A stretch of 64,000 bases of DNA from a phage. The position numbers and the translations under genes were made by a program. The notes under the pieces are model-generated. The model was not told the DNA's origin. It saw nothing but the letters and a program-made list of their open reading frames with translations, and made no database searches. Where the stretch lies: sequence record NC_100371.1. One strand, given 5' to 3'. Below, one piece after another: positions 43,742-53,947 of this stretch. Every line of letters starts with the position of its first letter. Positions within the stretch are counted from its first letter, which is position 1.

Positions 43742-44654
43742 ATAGTCTATCTGCTCCCATTCGAATTGCGTCGTTTATGTTCGGGCAAGGTCGCTAGTCT
43801 TGCCCCGCCATTTTCAGGCAGCTGCATGTCTCCATGCAGACCAGACTATATCTTATGAATGTGCAAATACTCTGCTGCTCTAAGAATGGTTTCCTCATCC
43901 TCTTGGAAGAAACCTAAAGCTCTGTTGCATTTATCACAAAGCAACCCTCTTACAGCACCAGTTTTATGGTCATGATCAACACAAAAGAAATCTCTGTACC
44001 CTTGCGTCCTATACTCATCAAGAGATATTCTACAAATGGCACACTTATGATCTTGATCTGAGAGTAAGCGATAGTATTCATCTTTTGTTATGTGAAATTT
44101 CTTCTCAATCTGATAAAACTTTTCACACATCTTACACCTGTTCGTAACCAGATACACTTTACCATAGTCACGTTTTGTGTAAAAACTATCAGCAAGCATA
44201 CTTTCATGACAAGATTTACATTCAAAAAGCTCACCTTTCTTCAGTAAGTCTTGAATAAAAGATGCTGCATCATCTCTCTTAACCATATTTTTGTTTCTAC
44301 GAGATCCATTCTTCCTGTAGTACATATAGCATTCCTTGCATGTACCGGAGTATCCATCCTTGCTCTTAGATGATAAAAAGAAATCATCAAGAGGTAGAAC
44401 TCTTTGGCAATCCATACATTTTTTAGTATTACACATTCACCCTCCCGTTTCGAATCGCTTGATTCTACGTCTTTCGACTAGTCGTTGAACGTTCATCCTT
44501 TCGGATGCTTCGCTGCGGATTATCTAAATTAACACACTGTTACCATACCTTCGATCTCTCTTCGAAGCCTCTATCATGTTACCATGACAGGTTGGTGGTG
44601 TCAATAATAAAGATTTCCCCGCAATTAGGGAGGTTTTACGAGAGCTACAAATTA
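43742..44654 (-). mobile_element. group I intron (td-like) in terL, carrying HNH homing endonuclease ORF
   Basis: Minus strand begins UAAUUUGU... right after exon codon GGU (in-frame UAA); contains P-like AAUUGCGGGGAAA, Q-like AAUCCGCAGC, R-like GUUCAACGACUAGUC and S-like AAGAUAUAGUCU in canonical order. Confidence 0.7.
43846..44436 (-). CDS. HNH homing endonuclease (intron-encoded, 196 aa)
   Basis: Own GGGAGGG RBS; several CxxC zinc-finger pairs and HNH/EndoVII-type motif CVDHDHKTGAVRGLLCDKCNRALG; stop codon UAG lies inside the S element. Confidence 0.7.
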   Translation of the reverse strand: MCNTKKCMDCQRVLPLDDFFLSSKSKDGYSGTCKECYMYYRKNGSRRNKNMVKRDDAASFIQDLLKKGELFECKSCHESMLADSFYTKRDYGKVYLVTNRCKMCEKFYQIEKKFHITKDEYYRLLSDQDHKCAICRISLDEYRTQGYRDFFCVDHDHKTGAVRGLLCDKCNRALGFFQEDEETILRAAEYLHIHKI

Positions 44655-45080
44655 ACCCTCATCGAAGCAAACCATGGTGTACTCAAGTCCTTGATGGTTA
44701 AGCTTATCTTGGACATACTCCATGTGGCAGTATTTTACAACAGCTCCTTTTTTGCTCCTGTCCCACTTGCCAGTGCTCGGATCAAACCGTGGAAAAATAA
44801 ACTTATGATCCTTCTCTCTGAACTTTGGTTTAATGTTTTCAGGCAGATCACTGTAAATAGCTACTGCTTTAGGCCATAGCCCACCCTCACCTTCCAACTG
44901 TGGAGTTGTTCTTCGGAACATAACCACAGAGCTGTGTGGGTCATCAATAATTTTAAGCGGCATCAACTGCAGGAGGAACGACTTACCTGACCCAGCCGCA
45001 CCACCAATGACAAGAATGTCTGCATCGTTTTCCAGGATCATCTTCTGCTTTTCAGAACACGGTCCGTAAATCTTAGACAT
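44652..45080 (-). CDS. terL: terminase large subunit, exon 1 (N-terminal ATPase part)
   Basis: Walker A ILVIGGAAGSGKSF and Walker B MVCFDEG; ORF ends at TAA directly after DEG, which I read as the first intron codon. Confidence 0.7.
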   Translation of the reverse strand: MSKIYGPCSEKQKMILENDADILVIGGAAGSGKSFLLQLMPLKIIDDPHSSVVMFRRTTPQLEGEGGLWPKAVAIYSDLPENIKPKFREKDHKFIFPRFDPSTGKWDRSKKGAVVKYCHMEYVQDKLNHQGLEYTMVCFDEG

Positions 45081-45367
45081 TAACCTCTCTCCTTTGGAAA
45101 CAGTGTTCTAATATAGTCTTGCAAAATGATCAATTTAGCCCTATCATTACTGCAAGACAGGTTATTATCCCTCATAATGCCAGAATTCACCGCATCAGGC
45201 GCACCTTTCTTTAAAGGTATAGCTTTAGCAGGAGGCTTCATAGCACCCTCGGGAGGTTTAACAATCAACCTTCCTACATCCGGAGGGTCAATCTTGTATT
45301 CTCTCTCAACGCTGGTTGCACACCCACACAATAACAAGCACAAAACAACCAGTGCAGTAACTCTCAT
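45080..45367 (-). CDS. o-spanin-like outer-membrane lipoprotein (95 aa)
   Basis: Signal peptide with Cys-containing lipobox-like LLLCGC; Pro-rich (PPDVGRLIVKPPEGAMKPPAKAIP); overlaps i-spanin stop by 4 nt. Confidence 0.5.
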   Translation of the reverse strand: MRVTALVVLCLLLCGCATSVEREYKIDPPDVGRLIVKPPEGAMKPPAKAIPLKKGAPDAVNSGIMRDNNLSCSNDRAKLIILQDYIRTLFPKERG

Positions 45368-45781: not shown

Positions 45782-45812
45782 AAAAAACCCCGCAGCTATA
45801 CAGCTAACGGGG
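45782..45812 (-). terminator. intrinsic terminator (minus strand) downstream of tRNA cluster
   Basis: CCCCG...CGGGG stem with inner AGCU/AGCU pairing followed by UUUUUUCG on minus strand. Confidence 0.55.
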
Positions 45813-45868
45813 CGGGTTAAAATTGAGTAACCTAAATAGATCGAAACTAACTAAAAGGAGACTAATAC

Positions 45869-46138
45869 TTATCGAGGCACTCGGTGGATGATTCTGACAG
45901 TAACCGCATTCTCATTCATCAAGTAAGCATCCACATCTCTGTAAATATAAAACTTCTGCTCGCTATCAACAACACAAGCTACTGCCCCTTCAGAGTTGTC
46001 TTCAAAGAAGACCACAACTGCATCGCAGCTTAGTTCATGATACGACTCTCGAAGATTTACAGCAAGAGGGTTGAAATCGTCACGAAGATCTAAAGTATGG
46101 GTTGGATTTACACGTTCTACAATTTTAAGTGTATACAT
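45869..46138 (-). CDS. hypothetical protein (89 aa)
   Basis: ORF between tRNA cluster and terminator. Confidence 0.35.
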   Translation of the reverse strand: MYTLKIVERVNPTHTLDLRDDFNPLAVNLRESYHELSCDAVVVFFEDNSEGAVACVVDSEQKFYIYRDVDAYLMNENAVTVRIIHRVPR

Positions 46139-46184: not shown

Positions 46185-46261
46185 TGGTCTCCACGGAGTG
46201 ATTCGAACACTCGACCTCCTGATCCCAAATCAGGCGCTCTACCAAGCTGAGCTACGCGGAG
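46185..46261 (-). tRNA. tRNA-Pro (anticodon UGG)
   Basis: Manual fold: acceptor CUCCGCG/CGUGGAG, anticodon arm CCUGA-UUUGGGA-UCAGG, T-arm GAGUG-UUCGAAU-CACUC, encoded CCA. Confidence 0.75.
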
Positions 46262-46272
46262 TATTTATTATT

Positions 46273-46347
46273 TGGTGGCCCTGGGTGGAATTGAACCACC
46301 GTCTGGCGATTATGAGTCGCTTGCTTGAACCTTCCAGCTACAGGGCC
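46273..46347 (-). tRNA. tRNA-Met (anticodon CAU; could be Ile-lysidine type)
   Basis: Manual fold: acceptor GGCCCUG/CAGGGCC, anticodon loop CUCAUAA, T-arm GGUGG-UUCAAUU-CCACC, CCA. Confidence 0.7.
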
Positions 46348-46348
46348 A

Positions 46349-46424
46349 TGGTGCTGATGGCAGGACTTGAACCTGCAACCTATTGATTACAAATCAATTG
46401 CACTGCCAATTGTGCTACATCAGC
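46349..46424 (-). tRNA. tRNA-Thr (anticodon UGU)
   Basis: Manual fold: acceptor GCUGAUG/CAUCAGC, anticodon arm AUUGA-UUUGUAA-UCAAU, T-loop UUCAAGU, CCA. Confidence 0.7.
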
Positions 46425-46430
46425 AAAAGG

Positions 46431-46527
46431 TGCTAGGTGATGGAATCGAACCATCTATGTATTCAACGACTACCTCGTCTATTTTCAGGATTAAAAATCC
46501 TCGCCCTTGCCAAAGGGCTTACCTAGC
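46431..46527 (-). tRNA. atypical tRNA-like gene (97 nt; Lys-like UUUUUAA loop; identity unresolved)
   Basis: Perfect 7-bp acceptor GCUAGGU/ACCUAGC, D-arm GCCC-UUUGGCAA-GGGC, T-arm GAUGG-UUCGAUU-CCAUC, but 46 nt between D- and T-arms; no encoded CCA. Confidence 0.4.
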
Positions 46528-46625
46528 TCAGCATGTTGACCATGTTGCTAGTCGGCGATGACGACTGTAACATTTGATAATCCGGTTCTGCTTCCGGCTT
46601 TCGCTTAATTACAAGGTCAACAATA

Positions 46626-46716
46626 TGGCAGAGGATAATGGAATCGAACCATCATCGAGTCATCCTCAACGGGACGGTTTTCAAGACCGCTTGAGCACCA
46701 TTGCTCCCTACCCTCT
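46626..46716 (-). tRNA. tRNA-Ser (anticodon UGA), class II
   Basis: Manual fold: acceptor AGAGGGU/AUCCUCU, anticodon arm GCGGU-CUUGAAA-ACCGU, long variable arm, T-loop UUCGAUU, CCA. Confidence 0.7.
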
Positions 46717-46830
46717 TTTATAAACAATACTGATAATGACACTGATTTTCGAGCAGTTAGTGACTAGTATAAACGACGATAAATATCAATGCCATTATCT
46801 GTATGATTTATGCATTTAAAAATATAAATT

Positions 46831-46918
46831 TGGTGGTGAGTGATGGAGTCGAACCACCCGAATCGCAATGATAACAGATTTACAGTCTGCCCCGCTACCC
46901 CTACGGAATTAACTCACC
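46831..46918 (-). tRNA. tRNA-Tyr (anticodon GUA), class II
   Basis: Manual fold: acceptor GGUGAGU/ACUCACC, anticodon arm GCAGA-CUGUAAA-UCUGU, long variable arm, T-loop UUCGACU, CCA. Confidence 0.7.
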
Positions 46919-47048
46919 TAAATACTAATATTTAAATTCTTTTTAAAATAGCTAGTGTTCTAACCACTAACTATGAGGTATCGGTAAAGTGGTTACCGCC
47001 ACTTGCCGAAGATTTACTCTGCTAAAGTAAGCTACATTAAAAAGAACT

Positions 47049-47123
47049 TGGCACCCCGTACTGGACTCGAACCAGTGTCAACGGCTTAGAAGGCCGCTGC
47101 TTTATCCACTAAGCTAACAGGGC
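47049..47123 (-). tRNA. tRNA-Arg (anticodon UCU)
   Basis: Manual fold: acceptor GCCCUGU/ACGGGGU (two G-U pairs), anticodon arm GCGGC-CUUCUAA-GCCGU, T-arm ACUGG-UUCGAGU-CCAGU, CCA. Confidence 0.65.
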
Positions 47124-47181
47124 ACTGGGTGGCTTTCTTTTACACCTGAGCCGCCAGAAAAGGTGGGAGACCATGTTTATA

Positions 47182-47210
47182 ATATTACACTGTTAGGCAA
47201 AGTTTGTCAA
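47182..47210 (-). promoter_or_regulatory. sigma70-like promoter for tRNA cluster (minus strand)
   Basis: Minus strand TTGACA, 17 nt spacer, TAATAT, about 55 nt upstream of tRNA-Arg 5' end. Confidence 0.5.
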
Positions 47211-47558: not shown

Positions 47559-47903
47559 GTTTCCTCCATTATCACGTGATAGGTGGATTTTATCACGGCA
47601 AATACTGATTGTCAAGTTCGCCGCAGGGTGGTATTCCCTGCGACTTGCCCAGCGTCCTGGACCAGCAAGACCCAACAAGTGGGTTACCAGATACCCATTA
47701 CCGCGCTCTGGCTCGACCTTATTACAGGTTGGCTGGGGTCACATCGTCATGTGCTGGCTGCCCCTACCATTTTAAGTGTGGTGCACTATCAAGCCCTCTA
47801 AGGGGAACTCAGCCTTCTCCGAACCCTGTTTCAAAGCATCCGGAGATAAAGCCATCAAACTCATCTTTAAATTGGATATTCATCATGATACACGAAAACA
47901 ACC

Positions 47904-48146
47904 TCATTGTAAAGCACAAATAAATAAAACATACTTAATTTGTTTGTTATCAGGCTCAGGGTAGAAGTAGAAGATCTTGCTATCACCGATCTGAACACCA
48001 CCATCCCAACAGCATAACCCATAACCAGTATTCATACAAGCTAAGTCGTTGGCAAAATCTATTGCATCATCTAGTGCACGAAATTCACCTTCATCTTCTA
48101 AATAATCCTCATTCATGGAACGGAAAACGAGCTTAACCTTAAACAT
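47904..48146 (-). CDS. hypothetical protein (80 aa)
   Basis: ORF only. Confidence 0.3.
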   Translation of the reverse strand: MFKVKLVFRSMNEDYLEDEGEFRALDDAIDFANDLACMNTGYGLCCWDGGVQIGDSKIFYFYPEPDNKQIKYVLFICALQ

Positions 48147-48222
48147 AGCATTACCTGTAGACCTCGTAAGTTAAAATTGTATCACATCATATTGCAGATC
48201 TTATCAGGTAACATTATTTTTG

Positions 48223-48411
48223 TCAACAGATTCCGGCCTTATCCCTCCTGTCTGCGTATTCTTTAATCGCAACCTCACCTGCATTGGTAACCAGATCTTC
48301 AAAGTAATTCTCAAGCTCCTCGTCAATGTCCGGTGACCAGCTCTTTTTCCTGTCAGTGTGAATTGCAGACTTGTTGAACTTATTACAATTCTTTGCTACC
48401 GGATTGTTCAT
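48223..48411 (-). CDS. hypothetical protein (62 aa)
   Basis: ORF only. Confidence 0.25.
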   Translation of the reverse strand: MNNPVAKNCNKFNKSAIHTDRKKSWSPDIDEELENYFEDLVTNAGEVAIKEYADRRDKAGIC

Positions 48412-53198: not shown

Positions 53199-53912
53199 AT
53201 GCTGAATACCAAATTAATTGACAACCTGGAAAAACTGTCCCAGCCTGAAAACTACCTTTGGTCTGCCAACTGGGTGGAAAACTGGAACCGTGTAGCAGCT
53301 AAAGTGAAAAAATCATACACACCATTCGAACTTCAGCTGAGTTTCATTGAGGAAGAGTTCAATGAGGTTTTGGAAGAGTTGGAGAAAGGTGATGGTGGGG
53401 ATCATCTCCTAAAAGAGGCCTGCGATCTTCATGTTGTCACAAGTTATGCCGCTTATCTTGTTAACGATAACCATGAAAAGTGGTCAAACCTGTTTGATAA
53501 TCCGCGAGGTCTTAAGTTTAAGATCGGTGAATTTTATGATACACTGATCGCTGCGAAAAATACCTCTAAGCAAAGAGCGTCTGCTTACCGCTTAGCAGAG
53601 TTGTCAACAGCTTTGCTGTTCCAGCTTCGCGGTGATGTGTGCGGGATGATGCGGAAGGTTCTAAAATCTAATGACAGCAAGTTTGCACGCGTCAACCATC
53701 TGCGGTATTCACACGGTGCCAGTGCAGATATGCCTGCTGAACAACTCATCGAGTTGGAGATTAAAGATCTTGAGCGACGCTTTGATGGTCGCTATGAAGG
53801 TTTTGTTGCTAAAGAAGAATTCTACAACGGAAATAAAGTTATCATATTCCTTGACAGTAAAGGTAAGATTATGAAGCCTTCAAGCTTCAAAGATGTAACA
53901 GAATATATTTAA
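53199..53912 (+). CDS. MazG-like nucleotide pyrophosphohydrolase domain protein (237 aa)
   Basis: N-terminal EEEFNEVLEELEKGD...EACD matches the MazG/HisE E-x2-E...E-x2-D pattern; C-terminal half unassigned. Confidence 0.4.
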   Translation: MLNTKLIDNLEKLSQPENYLWSANWVENWNRVAAKVKKSYTPFELQLSFIEEEFNEVLEELEKGDGGDHLLKEACDLHVVTSYAAYLVNDNHEKWSNLFDNPRGLKFKIGEFYDTLIAAKNTSKQRASAYRLAELSTALLFQLRGDVCGMMRKVLKSNDSKFARVNHLRYSHGASADMPAEQLIELEIKDLERRFDGRYEGFVAKEEFYNGNKVIIFLDSKGKIMKPSSFKDVTEYI

Positions 53913-53918
53913 TAACAT

Positions 53919-53947
53919 AGCCGGGGCGATCCCGGCTTTACTTGTTT
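53919..53947 (+). terminator. intrinsic terminator (plus strand)
   Basis: AGCCGGG-GCGAU-CCCGGCU hairpin followed by UUACUUGUUU, 7 nt after stop of 53199..53912. Confidence 0.6.

Follow-up and report, generated by a model that had tools for sequence, protein, structure and literature searches.

A candidate tRNA-like RNA gene within the tRNA operon of an rV5-like Escherichia phage

The tRNA cluster described here lies in a 64,000-nt stretch of phage DNA (sequence record NC_100371.1; the whole stretch is referred to as the window), in which seven co-oriented genes with the shape of tRNAs occupy positions 46185-47123 of the minus strand (Table 1). The 2-kb stretch around the cluster is 99.6% identical to Vequintavirus genomes (rV5-like Escherichia myoviruses) in which these tRNAs are annotated, at least 80% of it is covered in 115 phage records, and many deposited genomes are 96-99.6% identical; sequence comparison identifies the region as the tRNA operon of such a Vequintavirus. 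At the same locus, the excerpted passages of the rV5 paper count six tRNAs (Arg, Tyr, Thr, Met, Pro, and Ser), already use AGA and ACA codon usage as an argument for their presence, and make no mention of a seventh gene (Kropinski et al., 2013; PMC3606486). As a set of six tRNAs, the operon is already known and ordinary. What appears to be new, judged from sequence, is the seventh gene, a conserved and undescribed tRNA-like RNA, poorly annotated and without an Rfam entry, while the reading of the Met tRNA as an Ile2-type tRNA is a useful correction.

An earlier note on this DNA, made from the letters alone, had listed the seven genes in the order Pro(UGG), Met(CAU), Thr(UGU), an atypical gene, Ser(UGA), Tyr(GUA), and Arg(UCU). 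The gene set and the common orientation stand, but the listed order runs opposite to transcription, which proceeds from Arg through Tyr, Ser, the atypical gene, Thr, and the CAU tRNA to Pro. ARAGORN, which that note had named as a check, calls six of the genes with the coordinates of Table 1, all on the minus strand, the Rfam tRNA model (RF00005, gathering score 29 bits) adds Tyr, and neither finds a further tRNA within the 64-kb window. The window tRNA-Tyr is missed by ARAGORN at default settings because additional bases separate its acceptor stem from its D stem, while a different Tyr allele, that of phage ime, is called. Model score and a tRNA-finder call with a 7-nt anticodon loop identify six genes as canonical elongator tRNAs, Tyr via Rfam only and Ser via ARAGORN, the top match of Ser in the Rfam tRNA clan being tRNA-Sec at 39.4 bits, which is under the tRNA-Sec cut-off. 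tRNA-Arg is 74% identical to E. coli argU with an equal anticodon loop, Tyr and Ser agree with E. coli tyrU and serT, respectively, in the anticodon loop and in four stem pairs out of five, and tRNA-Pro is 82% identical to that of phage T4.

The seventh gene, called the atypical gene in the earlier note, is not an odd isoacceptor but a member of a conserved family of tRNA-like RNAs in which the anticodon arm is never canonical. The window copy has a 7-bp acceptor stem, a canonical T arm, and a D arm whose 6-bp stem carries a tetraloop; across the family, the D arm can form GNNNUU-UGGC-AANNNC, likewise a 6-bp stem with a tetraloop, and in this respect resembles tRNA-Sec and allo-tRNAs. The anticodon-like arm of the window copy (AGGAU-UUUUA-AUCCU) comprises 15 nt as compared with the canonical 17, and in all 32 distinct members it measures 15-16 nt, with a 5-bp stem and a 5-6-nt loop when read as paired. 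The loop is UUUUA in the window, UUAUA in Avunavirus, CAUCCA, CCUCCA, or CAGCCA in Seunavirus and Mydovirus, and AUCAA in Henunavirus and Ithacavirus, and A takes the place of U33 outside Vequintavirus and Avunavirus, namely in the Seuna-, Mydo-, and Henunavirus types. The gene therefore lacks the canonical 17-nt arm with 5 bp, a 7-nt loop and U33, and since position 8 is A in every member, it also lacks the U8:A14 core pair, together with the usual D arm of a 3-4-bp stem and a 7-11-nt loop. The arm is followed by GAAAA, a variable hairpin, the invariant AAUACAUA, and the T arm. GAAAA is near-invariant, with GUAAA in the Ithacavirus copy as the single exception, and the variable hairpin (3-9 bp), which is flanked on either side by 8-10 conserved unpaired bases, is retained while its sequence is replaced between lineages. 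All members have a 7/5 acceptor/T branch, both helices of which are supported by covariation. Most genera encode U73-CCA, whereas the Vequintavirus copy ends in A73-CC, followed by UUUU and then tRNA-Thr; as known from T4 biology, maturation of such a 3' end would call for trimming and for the CCA-adding enzyme of the host. The window copy passes the gathering score of the tRNA model (37.5 versus 29 bits), while the Seunavirus and Avunavirus copies fall short of it.

BLAST searches matched 127 phage records with the window copy as query and 188 with the Seunavirus copy, and the family spans Vequintavirus, Avunavirus, Seunavirus, Mydovirus, and Henunavirus as well as one N4-like Ithacavirus, its members always lying within a tRNA cluster and directly adjoining another tRNA. 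GenBank labels range from tRNA-Lys, tRNA-OTHER, tRNA-???(atcc), and tRNA-TERM to nothing, and outside Vequintavirus almost no record annotates a family member as RNA. Among 18 distinct copies, 99.0% of the alignment cells of four helices and one tertiary pair are paired and 11 of the 22 pairs show compensatory changes, as against at most 45% paired when the partner is slid by 1-3 columns; with metagenomic copies included (32 distinct sequences), the values are 98.6% and 14 of 21 pairs. The elbow pair G19:C56 switches to U19:A56 in six of the 18 distinct sequences, and this covariation argues that the L-shape is under selection. A covariance model of the family (R1) gives its members 89-120 bits and ordinary tRNAs at most 35 bits; an R1 match elsewhere in the window (53857-53944, 18.9 bits) was dismissed, as it looks like an ordinary hairpin region and not a tRNA. 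When representative genomes of 185,579 species of bacteria and archaea were scanned for the motif, six loci were returned, none of them a family member, and a bacterial origin or homologue was therefore dropped. Seven new loci obtained from IMG/VR with an anticodon-arm pattern included no member either, and in the literature we found neither a description of this RNA nor transcriptomes of Vequintavirinae. In Salmonella phage UTK0002 (Schitoviridae, Ithacavirus; L010:1003-1109), a full-length member was observed in the tRNA cluster; its sequence points to horizontal transfer between unrelated phage families.

Two natural deletions are known in the family. In phages V18 (L004:1440-1555) and JES2013 (L005:1440-1535), a fusion through the near-identical T arms of both genes has joined the 5' part of tRNA-Tyr and the 3' part of the tRNA-like gene, so that Ser and the intact tRNA-like gene are lost. 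Such losses, the non-canonical anticodon arm, and the incomplete CCA of Vequintavirus and Avunavirus would fit a decaying pseudogene, i.e., a functionless passenger left over from a class II or Sec-like tRNA. However, compensatory changes preserve the four helices and the tertiary pair across five genera and the Schitoviridae member, AAUACAUA and GAAAA stay unchanged (but for the Ithacavirus GUAAA) while the stems turn over, the variable hairpin is retained despite its replaced sequence, and the gene is present in 127 phage records, which makes decay a most improbable explanation. On these comparisons, the seventh gene is read as a conserved, L-shaped, phage-specific RNA gene embedded among tRNAs, whose product is probably a non-decoding, non-translating tRNA mimic.

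Table 1. Positions of the cluster genes and of other features in the window, and of structured RNAs at related loci (z-scores refer to folding relative to shuffled controls).
Feature	Position	Strand	Evidence and remarks
Sigma-70-type promoter	47182-47210	-	Consensus scan; -35 TTGACA 47210-47205, 17-nt spacer, -10 TAATAT 47187-47182
5' leader, ~52 nt	47124-47181	-	98-100% identical in 11 related loci
tRNA-Arg(UCU)	47049-47123	-	ARAGORN; Rfam 67.8 bits; reads AGA, AGG
Arg-Tyr insertion, 130 nt	46919-47048	-	11-bp closing stem around three hairpins; z = -4.3
tRNA-Tyr(GUA), class II	46834-46918	-	Rfam tRNA model, 39.0 bits
Tyr-Ser spacer	46717-46833	-	Hairpin of ~15 bp; z = -4.6; 0/200 shuffles fold as well
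tRNA-Ser(UGA), class II	46626-46716	-	ARAGORN
Spacer between Ser and tRNA-like gene	46528-46625	-	Closing stem of ~9 bp; z = -2.3
tRNA-like RNA (seventh, "atypical" gene)	46429-46527	-	ARAGORN as tRNA-???(atcc); Rfam 37.5 bits
tRNA-Thr(UGU)	46349-46424	-	ARAGORN; Rfam 77.1 bits; reads ACA
tRNA with anticodon CAU, Ile2 type	46273-46347	-	ARAGORN as Met(cat); Rfam 60.0 bits
tRNA-Pro(UGG)	46185-46261	-	ARAGORN; Rfam 66.4 bits
89-aa ORF	45869-46138	-	ORF list; PHROG 8729 (unknown function), E = 7e-43
Intrinsic terminator	45782-45813 (hairpin 45813-45787)	-	Fold and conservation; 11-pair hairpin with one bulge, then U6
Upstream promoter site	47587-47615	-	TTGACA-17-TAAAAT
Upstream promoter site	47885-47913	-	TTTACA-17-TATCAT
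Upstream promoter site	48198-48226	-	TTGACA-17-TAAGAT
95-aa ORF	45080-45367		Lipobox LLLCGC; Rz-like spanin PHROG matches
Insertion in terminase gene, 884 bp	43772-44655		Relative to phage ime
ORF in terminase insertion	43846-44436	-	Endonuclease VII/HNH type
Structured RNAs beside the tRNA-like gene	L009:1110-1292; L012:1111-1293; L015/L016:1096-1278; L006:1111-1300		
Structured RNAs beside the tRNA-like gene	L011:1096-1287; L002:2605-2796; L007/L008:1111-1305		

The gene given as Met(CAU) in the earlier note reads instead as an Ile2-type tRNA, with ileX-like stems and loop. A comparison with 5,425 E. coli genomes gave genes annotated as tRNA-Ile as its closest matches, and it shares 82% identity with an E. 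coli tRNA-Ile(CAU) allele. In an alignment with K-12 ileX, a second E. coli tRNA-Ile(CAU) allele, T4 tRNA-Ile, and K-12 metT, its acceptor stem starts with GGCCC and shares five of the seven pairs, including C4-G69 and C5-G68, with ileX, as do its anticodon loop and four of the five anticodon-stem pairs, whereas metT differs in both stems, tRNA-Met having the pairs U4-A69 and A5-U68. The remaining anticodon-stem pair, 27-43, is A/C as compared with G/U in ileX, yet A-C also occurs in the second E. coli allele, to which both stems and the loop of the phage tRNA are identical; the D and T arms differ from those of ileX. The CAU anticodon is shared with E. coli ileX and ileY and with the CAU tRNA of T4, which is itself annotated as tRNA-Ile. 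The gene hence combines the sequence features of an Ile2 tRNA and TilS substrate, namely C4-G69, C5-G68, and an ileX-type anticodon stem, the two acceptor pairs being what TilS recognises. On this sequence basis, C34 is predicted to be modified to lysidine and the tRNA to decode AUA; a vibriophage tRNA(CAU) does contain this modification (PMC13191261). In the excerpted passages of the rV5 paper, the Met tRNA was termed "seemingly unwarranted" (Kropinski et al., 2013; PMC3606486), a puzzle that dissolves for rV5-like phages because the CAU gene is of the Ile2 type.

A translational role of the cluster, one of the two suggested by the earlier note, fits a comparison of phage and E. coli codon usage. 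Codons were counted in long ORFs as proxies, 18,029 from the window and 14,727 from a 50-kb piece of E. coli K-12. The four highest phage/host ratios among all codons belong to AGA (16.6 versus 1.5 per 1000, ratio 11.1), AGG (8.1 versus 0.8, ratio 9.9), AUA (13.0 versus 2.4, ratio 5.3), and ACA (24.6 versus 5.5, ratio 4.5), and all four are read by cluster tRNAs, namely Arg(UCU), Thr(UGU), and, if it is Ile2, the CAU tRNA. ATG is not enriched (26.3 in the phage versus 30.2 in E. coli per 1000), and this contrast with AUA agrees with the Ile2 reading of the CAU tRNA. The six decoding tRNAs would accordingly top up the supply for codons that the AT-richer phage overuses, chiefly AGA/AGG, AUA, and ACA; beyond confirming this codon-supply logic, the six-tRNA operon adds little.

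Upstream of tRNA-Arg lies the TTGACA-17-TAATAT promoter already proposed in the earlier note. It agrees with the consensus at 10 of 12 positions, and both hexamers are unchanged in 12 of 12 related loci, among which the end of the neighbouring ORF (third-codon positions just upstream) and the bases of the promoter spacer vary. Consensus-type sites are frequent in this region (11 in 3.5 kb versus 7.4 expected by chance), so that a consensus match by itself is weak evidence. The hexamers at 17-nt spacing and the hairpin with its U tract are nonetheless what a promoter and a terminator would present in sequence, and transcription is predicted to start near 47175. Three near-consensus sigma-70 promoters were observed further upstream on the same strand (Table 1), equal or better matches than the cluster promoter; they precede small ORFs in what looks like a promoter-dense early region and may read through into the cluster. 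A scan found no terminator between these three sites and the cluster, hence read-through is possible, and the cluster promoter appears credible, though probably not the sole source of transcripts. The 5' leader, whose fold is not significant (z = +0.7), is presumably removed by RNase P. The terminator with which the cluster was said to end (placed at 45782-45812) is present: the fold of its 61-nt stretch has an energy of -20.3 kcal/mol (z = -4.0), relatives retain it with changes confined to the loop, and its absence from the list of a simple scan is probably owing to the bulged base. It does not follow directly on the tRNAs, but lies ~370 nt past tRNA-Pro with the 89-aa ORF, which has no Pfam match, in between, and the transcription unit is therefore not tRNA-only.

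Three of the intervals between the genes are structured. The Arg-Tyr insertion was found in JES2013 and the loci L037, L046, and L051, while the other Vequintavirus loci compared gave no match, and in phage ime, which is without it, Arg and Tyr are 4-5 nt apart; like the Tyr allele of the window, it occurs only in some relatives. Its presence or absence varies among near-identical phages, and the adjoining Tyr allele differs from that of insertion-free phages. The insertion has no Rfam match and could be a decayed tRNA remnant or a small mobile element. The Tyr-Ser spacer and the spacer before the tRNA-like gene are conserved only within Vequintavirus and may be RNase III sites or further small RNAs. 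In Henuna-, Mydo-, and Seunavirus, the ~185 nt that follow the tRNA-like gene were observed to form structured RNAs of two kinds, both closed by long stems, with compensatory changes in 16 of 66 and 5 of 64 predicted pairs. They have no Rfam match, are unannotated or, in some records, overlaid by short hypothetical-protein CDSs, and showed no sequence similarity to the window spacers. Since shuffled controls fold less well than the three window spacers (z = -2.3 to -4.6), long-stemmed RNAs adjoin the element in other genera, and the element always abuts another tRNA, it could be supposed that the element and the spacers act in cis, recruiting RNase P and RNase III as punctuation for processing or as stability elements. 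This is very unlikely, as the genuine neighbouring tRNAs already provide RNase P sites every 75-90 nt, and a cis role leaves unexplained the invariant 8-nt single-stranded motif, the U-CCA encoded in most genera, and the conserved elbow pair.

The second role raised by the earlier note, evasion of tRNA-cleaving host defences, finds no support in the sequences as far as nuclease-resistant variants are concerned. The tRNA-Lys of phage T5 resists PARIS AriB through changes at U39 and A41 (U39A, A41C) and at U16 (PMC12409363), T5 variants of tRNA-Lys, of tRNA-Thr(UGU), and of tRNA-Asn neutralise PARIS, the last two being required as well (PMC11464382; PMC12409363), and T5 tRNA-Tyr counters retron 78 (bioRxiv 10.1101/2023.03.15.532788). 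The likeness of the window to T5 lies in phage tRNAs of nuclease-targeted isoacceptor types, namely Thr(UGU), Tyr(GUA), and the Lys(UUU)-like loop of the seventh gene. In contrast to T5 tRNA-Lys, which is substituted at the cleavage site, tRNA-Thr of the window reads UUUGUAAUCAAU and retains the AriB-cleaved U36-A-A-U-C|A41 site of the host type, as well as UU at positions 16-17 of the D loop; its anticodon loop differs from that of K-12 at position 32 only, and those of Arg, Tyr, Ser, Ile2, and Pro are identical to their K-12 counterparts. No window tRNA carries changes of the T5 type in the U36-A-A-U39-C40|A41 site or at U16, and because the loops equal those of the host and Thr keeps UAAUC|A, there is no sign of nuclease-resistant variants, while buffering by extra tRNA copies is possible. 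In a broader form, the cluster as a whole could serve mainly in counter-defence, its tRNAs replacing host tRNAs cut by PARIS AriB (Lys, Thr, Asn), retron Ec78 (Tyr), PrrC, and colicin-type enzymes and its tRNA-like RNA acting as a decoy. Besides the T5 precedents and the presence of Thr(UGU) and Tyr(GUA), this would be in line with the arm of the tRNA-like RNA, which in E. coli phages has UAAUC, the core of the AriB site (PMC12409363), beside Thr(UGU), and with a loop that varies by genus on a fixed scaffold, as an arms-race interface would. Against it stand the host-like loops and the fully cleavable site of Thr, the 5-6-nt loops with A at position 33, which would mimic any anticodon loop poorly, the shortness of UAAUC (just 5 nt) and its absence from Seuna-, Mydo-, and Henunavirus copies, and the codon supply, which accounts for the choice of isoacceptors without defence. 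We therefore regard a cluster devoted mainly to counter-defence as unlikely.

As to the seventh RNA itself, it would be released, as its neighbours would be, by RNase P and 3' trimming and then act as a non-translating mimic, occupying a tRNA-binding protein, be it an anticodon nuclease of the host or an enzyme of tRNA processing, modification, or charging. A decoy or sponge is the likeliest of its conceivable roles, though taken by itself less probable than not: the short arm changes between lineages on a fixed scaffold and the E. coli-phage copies carry the AriB-site core, whereas 5-6-nt loops are poor mimics of anticodon loops. Broader still, and to be entertained only with considerable doubt, is the idea of a new phage-specific class of non-decoding tRNA mimics that would act as decoys or inhibitors of host tRNA-targeting immunity, in which a fixed scaffold (Sec-like D arm, core of GAAAA and AAUACAUA, covarying variable hairpin, and mature CCA end) would present a lineage-specific short arm, and which, together with the ~185-nt RNAs of the sister genera, would make the clusters of Vequintavirinae small-RNA counter-defence islands. 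Several other candidates were set aside. Complements of the invariant AAUACAUAG with at most one mismatch, sought as antisense targets, occur seven times in the window versus 16.7 expected, the sole exact match being the gene itself. As to a conserved partner protein, the 215-aa upstream ORF of other genera is unrelated to the upstream ORFs of the window, and the neighbouring ORFs tested belong to no Pfam family of known function, the only match being DUF7230 on a 62-aa ORF. A contact of the short arm with the variable hairpin through their loops was suggested by one paired change seen by eye (CAUCCA/UGGAG versus CAGCCA/UGGCG in L026), and the type with a 14-nt loop showed no complementarity.

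Beyond the terminator, two further observations concern neighbouring genes. The 95-aa ORF is an o-spanin, as judged from its lipobox and its spanin PHROG matches, and its homologue in phage ime (ime_4, L001:2581-2868) is annotated "putative large terminase subunit". The gene for the large terminase subunit is split, relative to phage ime, by the 884-bp insertion with its endonuclease ORF; this points to either a mobile intron or an interruption of the gene by a free-standing homing endonuclease, and the insertion has no group I intron match in Rfam.

Taken together, the explanation that we consider likely, short of certainty, is that of a Vequintavirus tRNA operon in which six decoding tRNAs serve codon supply and the seventh gene yields a non-decoding tRNA mimic. 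A conserved host-type promoter, perhaps assisted by read-through from upstream, would drive a polycistronic transcript that ends at the terminator past the small ORF, and host RNase P and 3' exonucleases would excise the RNAs, with the CCA-adding enzyme needed for the seventh RNA only, as its gene encodes A-CC. Several points weigh against this explanation. In the codon samples, which as ORF proxies are neither whole genomes nor expression-weighted sets, the codons of Pro(UGG), Ser(UGA), and Tyr are enriched 1.3- to 2.8-fold, and the Tyr codons, CCA (Pro), and UCA (Ser) only 1.3- to 1.9-fold. The viability of V18 and JES2013 without an intact copy means that the seventh gene is dispensable at least in the laboratory, and its full CCA is not encoded in the Vequintavirus and Avunavirus copies. 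Moreover, when the innermost U-A pair is opened, the window copy presents the loop UUUUUAA. It also carries A73, which is the discriminator base of tRNA-Lys, and several GenBank records label it tRNA-Lys, so that the opened loop and A73 leave Lys-codon decoding by the Vequintavirus copy a small probability. The gene would then be a working, if odd, tRNA-Lys(UUU), charged by LysRS via U34-U35-U36 and A73 and reading AAA and AAG, a view that agrees with the annotation of the BASEL genomes and several other records, with the passing Rfam score, in whose alignment the UUUUUAA loop is displayed, and with the 2.2-fold enrichment of AAG in the phage sample. We consider it improbable all the same: the arm has 15 nt instead of 17 and the minimum-energy fold closes the loop to 3-5 nt, A stands at position 8 and a tetraloop caps the 6-bp stem of the D arm, ARAGORN fits the gene only with a 4-base anticodon, and the sister-genus orthologues keep the scaffold with loops such as UUAUA, CAUCCA, and AUCAA, A at the U33 position, and U73. 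We also know of no tRNA-Lys with a 31-nt variable region.

The seventh gene is carried by more than 180 sequenced phages that are under development for therapy or biocontrol of E. coli, Salmonella, Klebsiella, Cronobacter, and Erwinia, and annotation pipelines label it inconsistently or miss it. If its product is indeed a mimic that engages tRNA enzymes or tRNA-cleaving defence nucleases, it would represent a new RNA-based counter-defence and a tractable parallel to the stable RNAs C and D of T4, and V18 and JES2013, as natural null variants, make the mimic directly testable.

Among known systems, the tRNA cluster of T4 is likewise a phage tRNA operon, with Arg(UCU), Ser(UGA), Thr(UGU), Ile(CAU), and Pro(UGG) in common with the window, and its tRNA-Pro, -Ser, and -Ile genes likewise do not encode CCA; it differs in having no Tyr and a homing endonuclease inside the cluster. 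It also contains stable RNAs that are not tRNAs, annotated "small, stable RNA", for two of which, C and D, we know of no assigned function. Homology of the seventh gene to T4 rnaC or rnaD was rejected, as R1 has no match in the T4 tRNA region and Rfam gives just a tRNA-Sec-like match of 17.5 bits on rnaC. Allo-tRNAs have varied anticodons, occur in bacteria and their phages, and have been suggested to be suppressors or regulatory RNAs; like tRNA-Sec, they have two traits in common with the seventh gene, a long variable arm and a long-stemmed D arm closed by a tetraloop (Mukai et al., 2017; PMC5389517). With the Rfam tRNA-Sec model, the Henunavirus copy (loop CAUCAAA, similar to CUUCAAA) reaches 40 bits and a Seunavirus copy 27 bits, both below the gathering score of 47, and the window copy has UUUUA in place of a 7-nt loop with a UCA anticodon. 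The discriminator is U or A, unlike the G73 of tRNA-Sec. The anticodon stem has 5 bp with a 5-6-nt loop as compared with 6 bp and a 7-nt loop, the base at position 33 is A, and the 8-10 conserved unpaired bases beside the variable hairpin set the gene further apart from both groups. Lastly, its 7/5 branch contrasts with 8/5 or 9/4 in tRNA-Sec and 8/4 or 9/3 in allo-tRNAs, and the seventh gene is therefore neither a tRNA-Sec nor an allo-tRNA.

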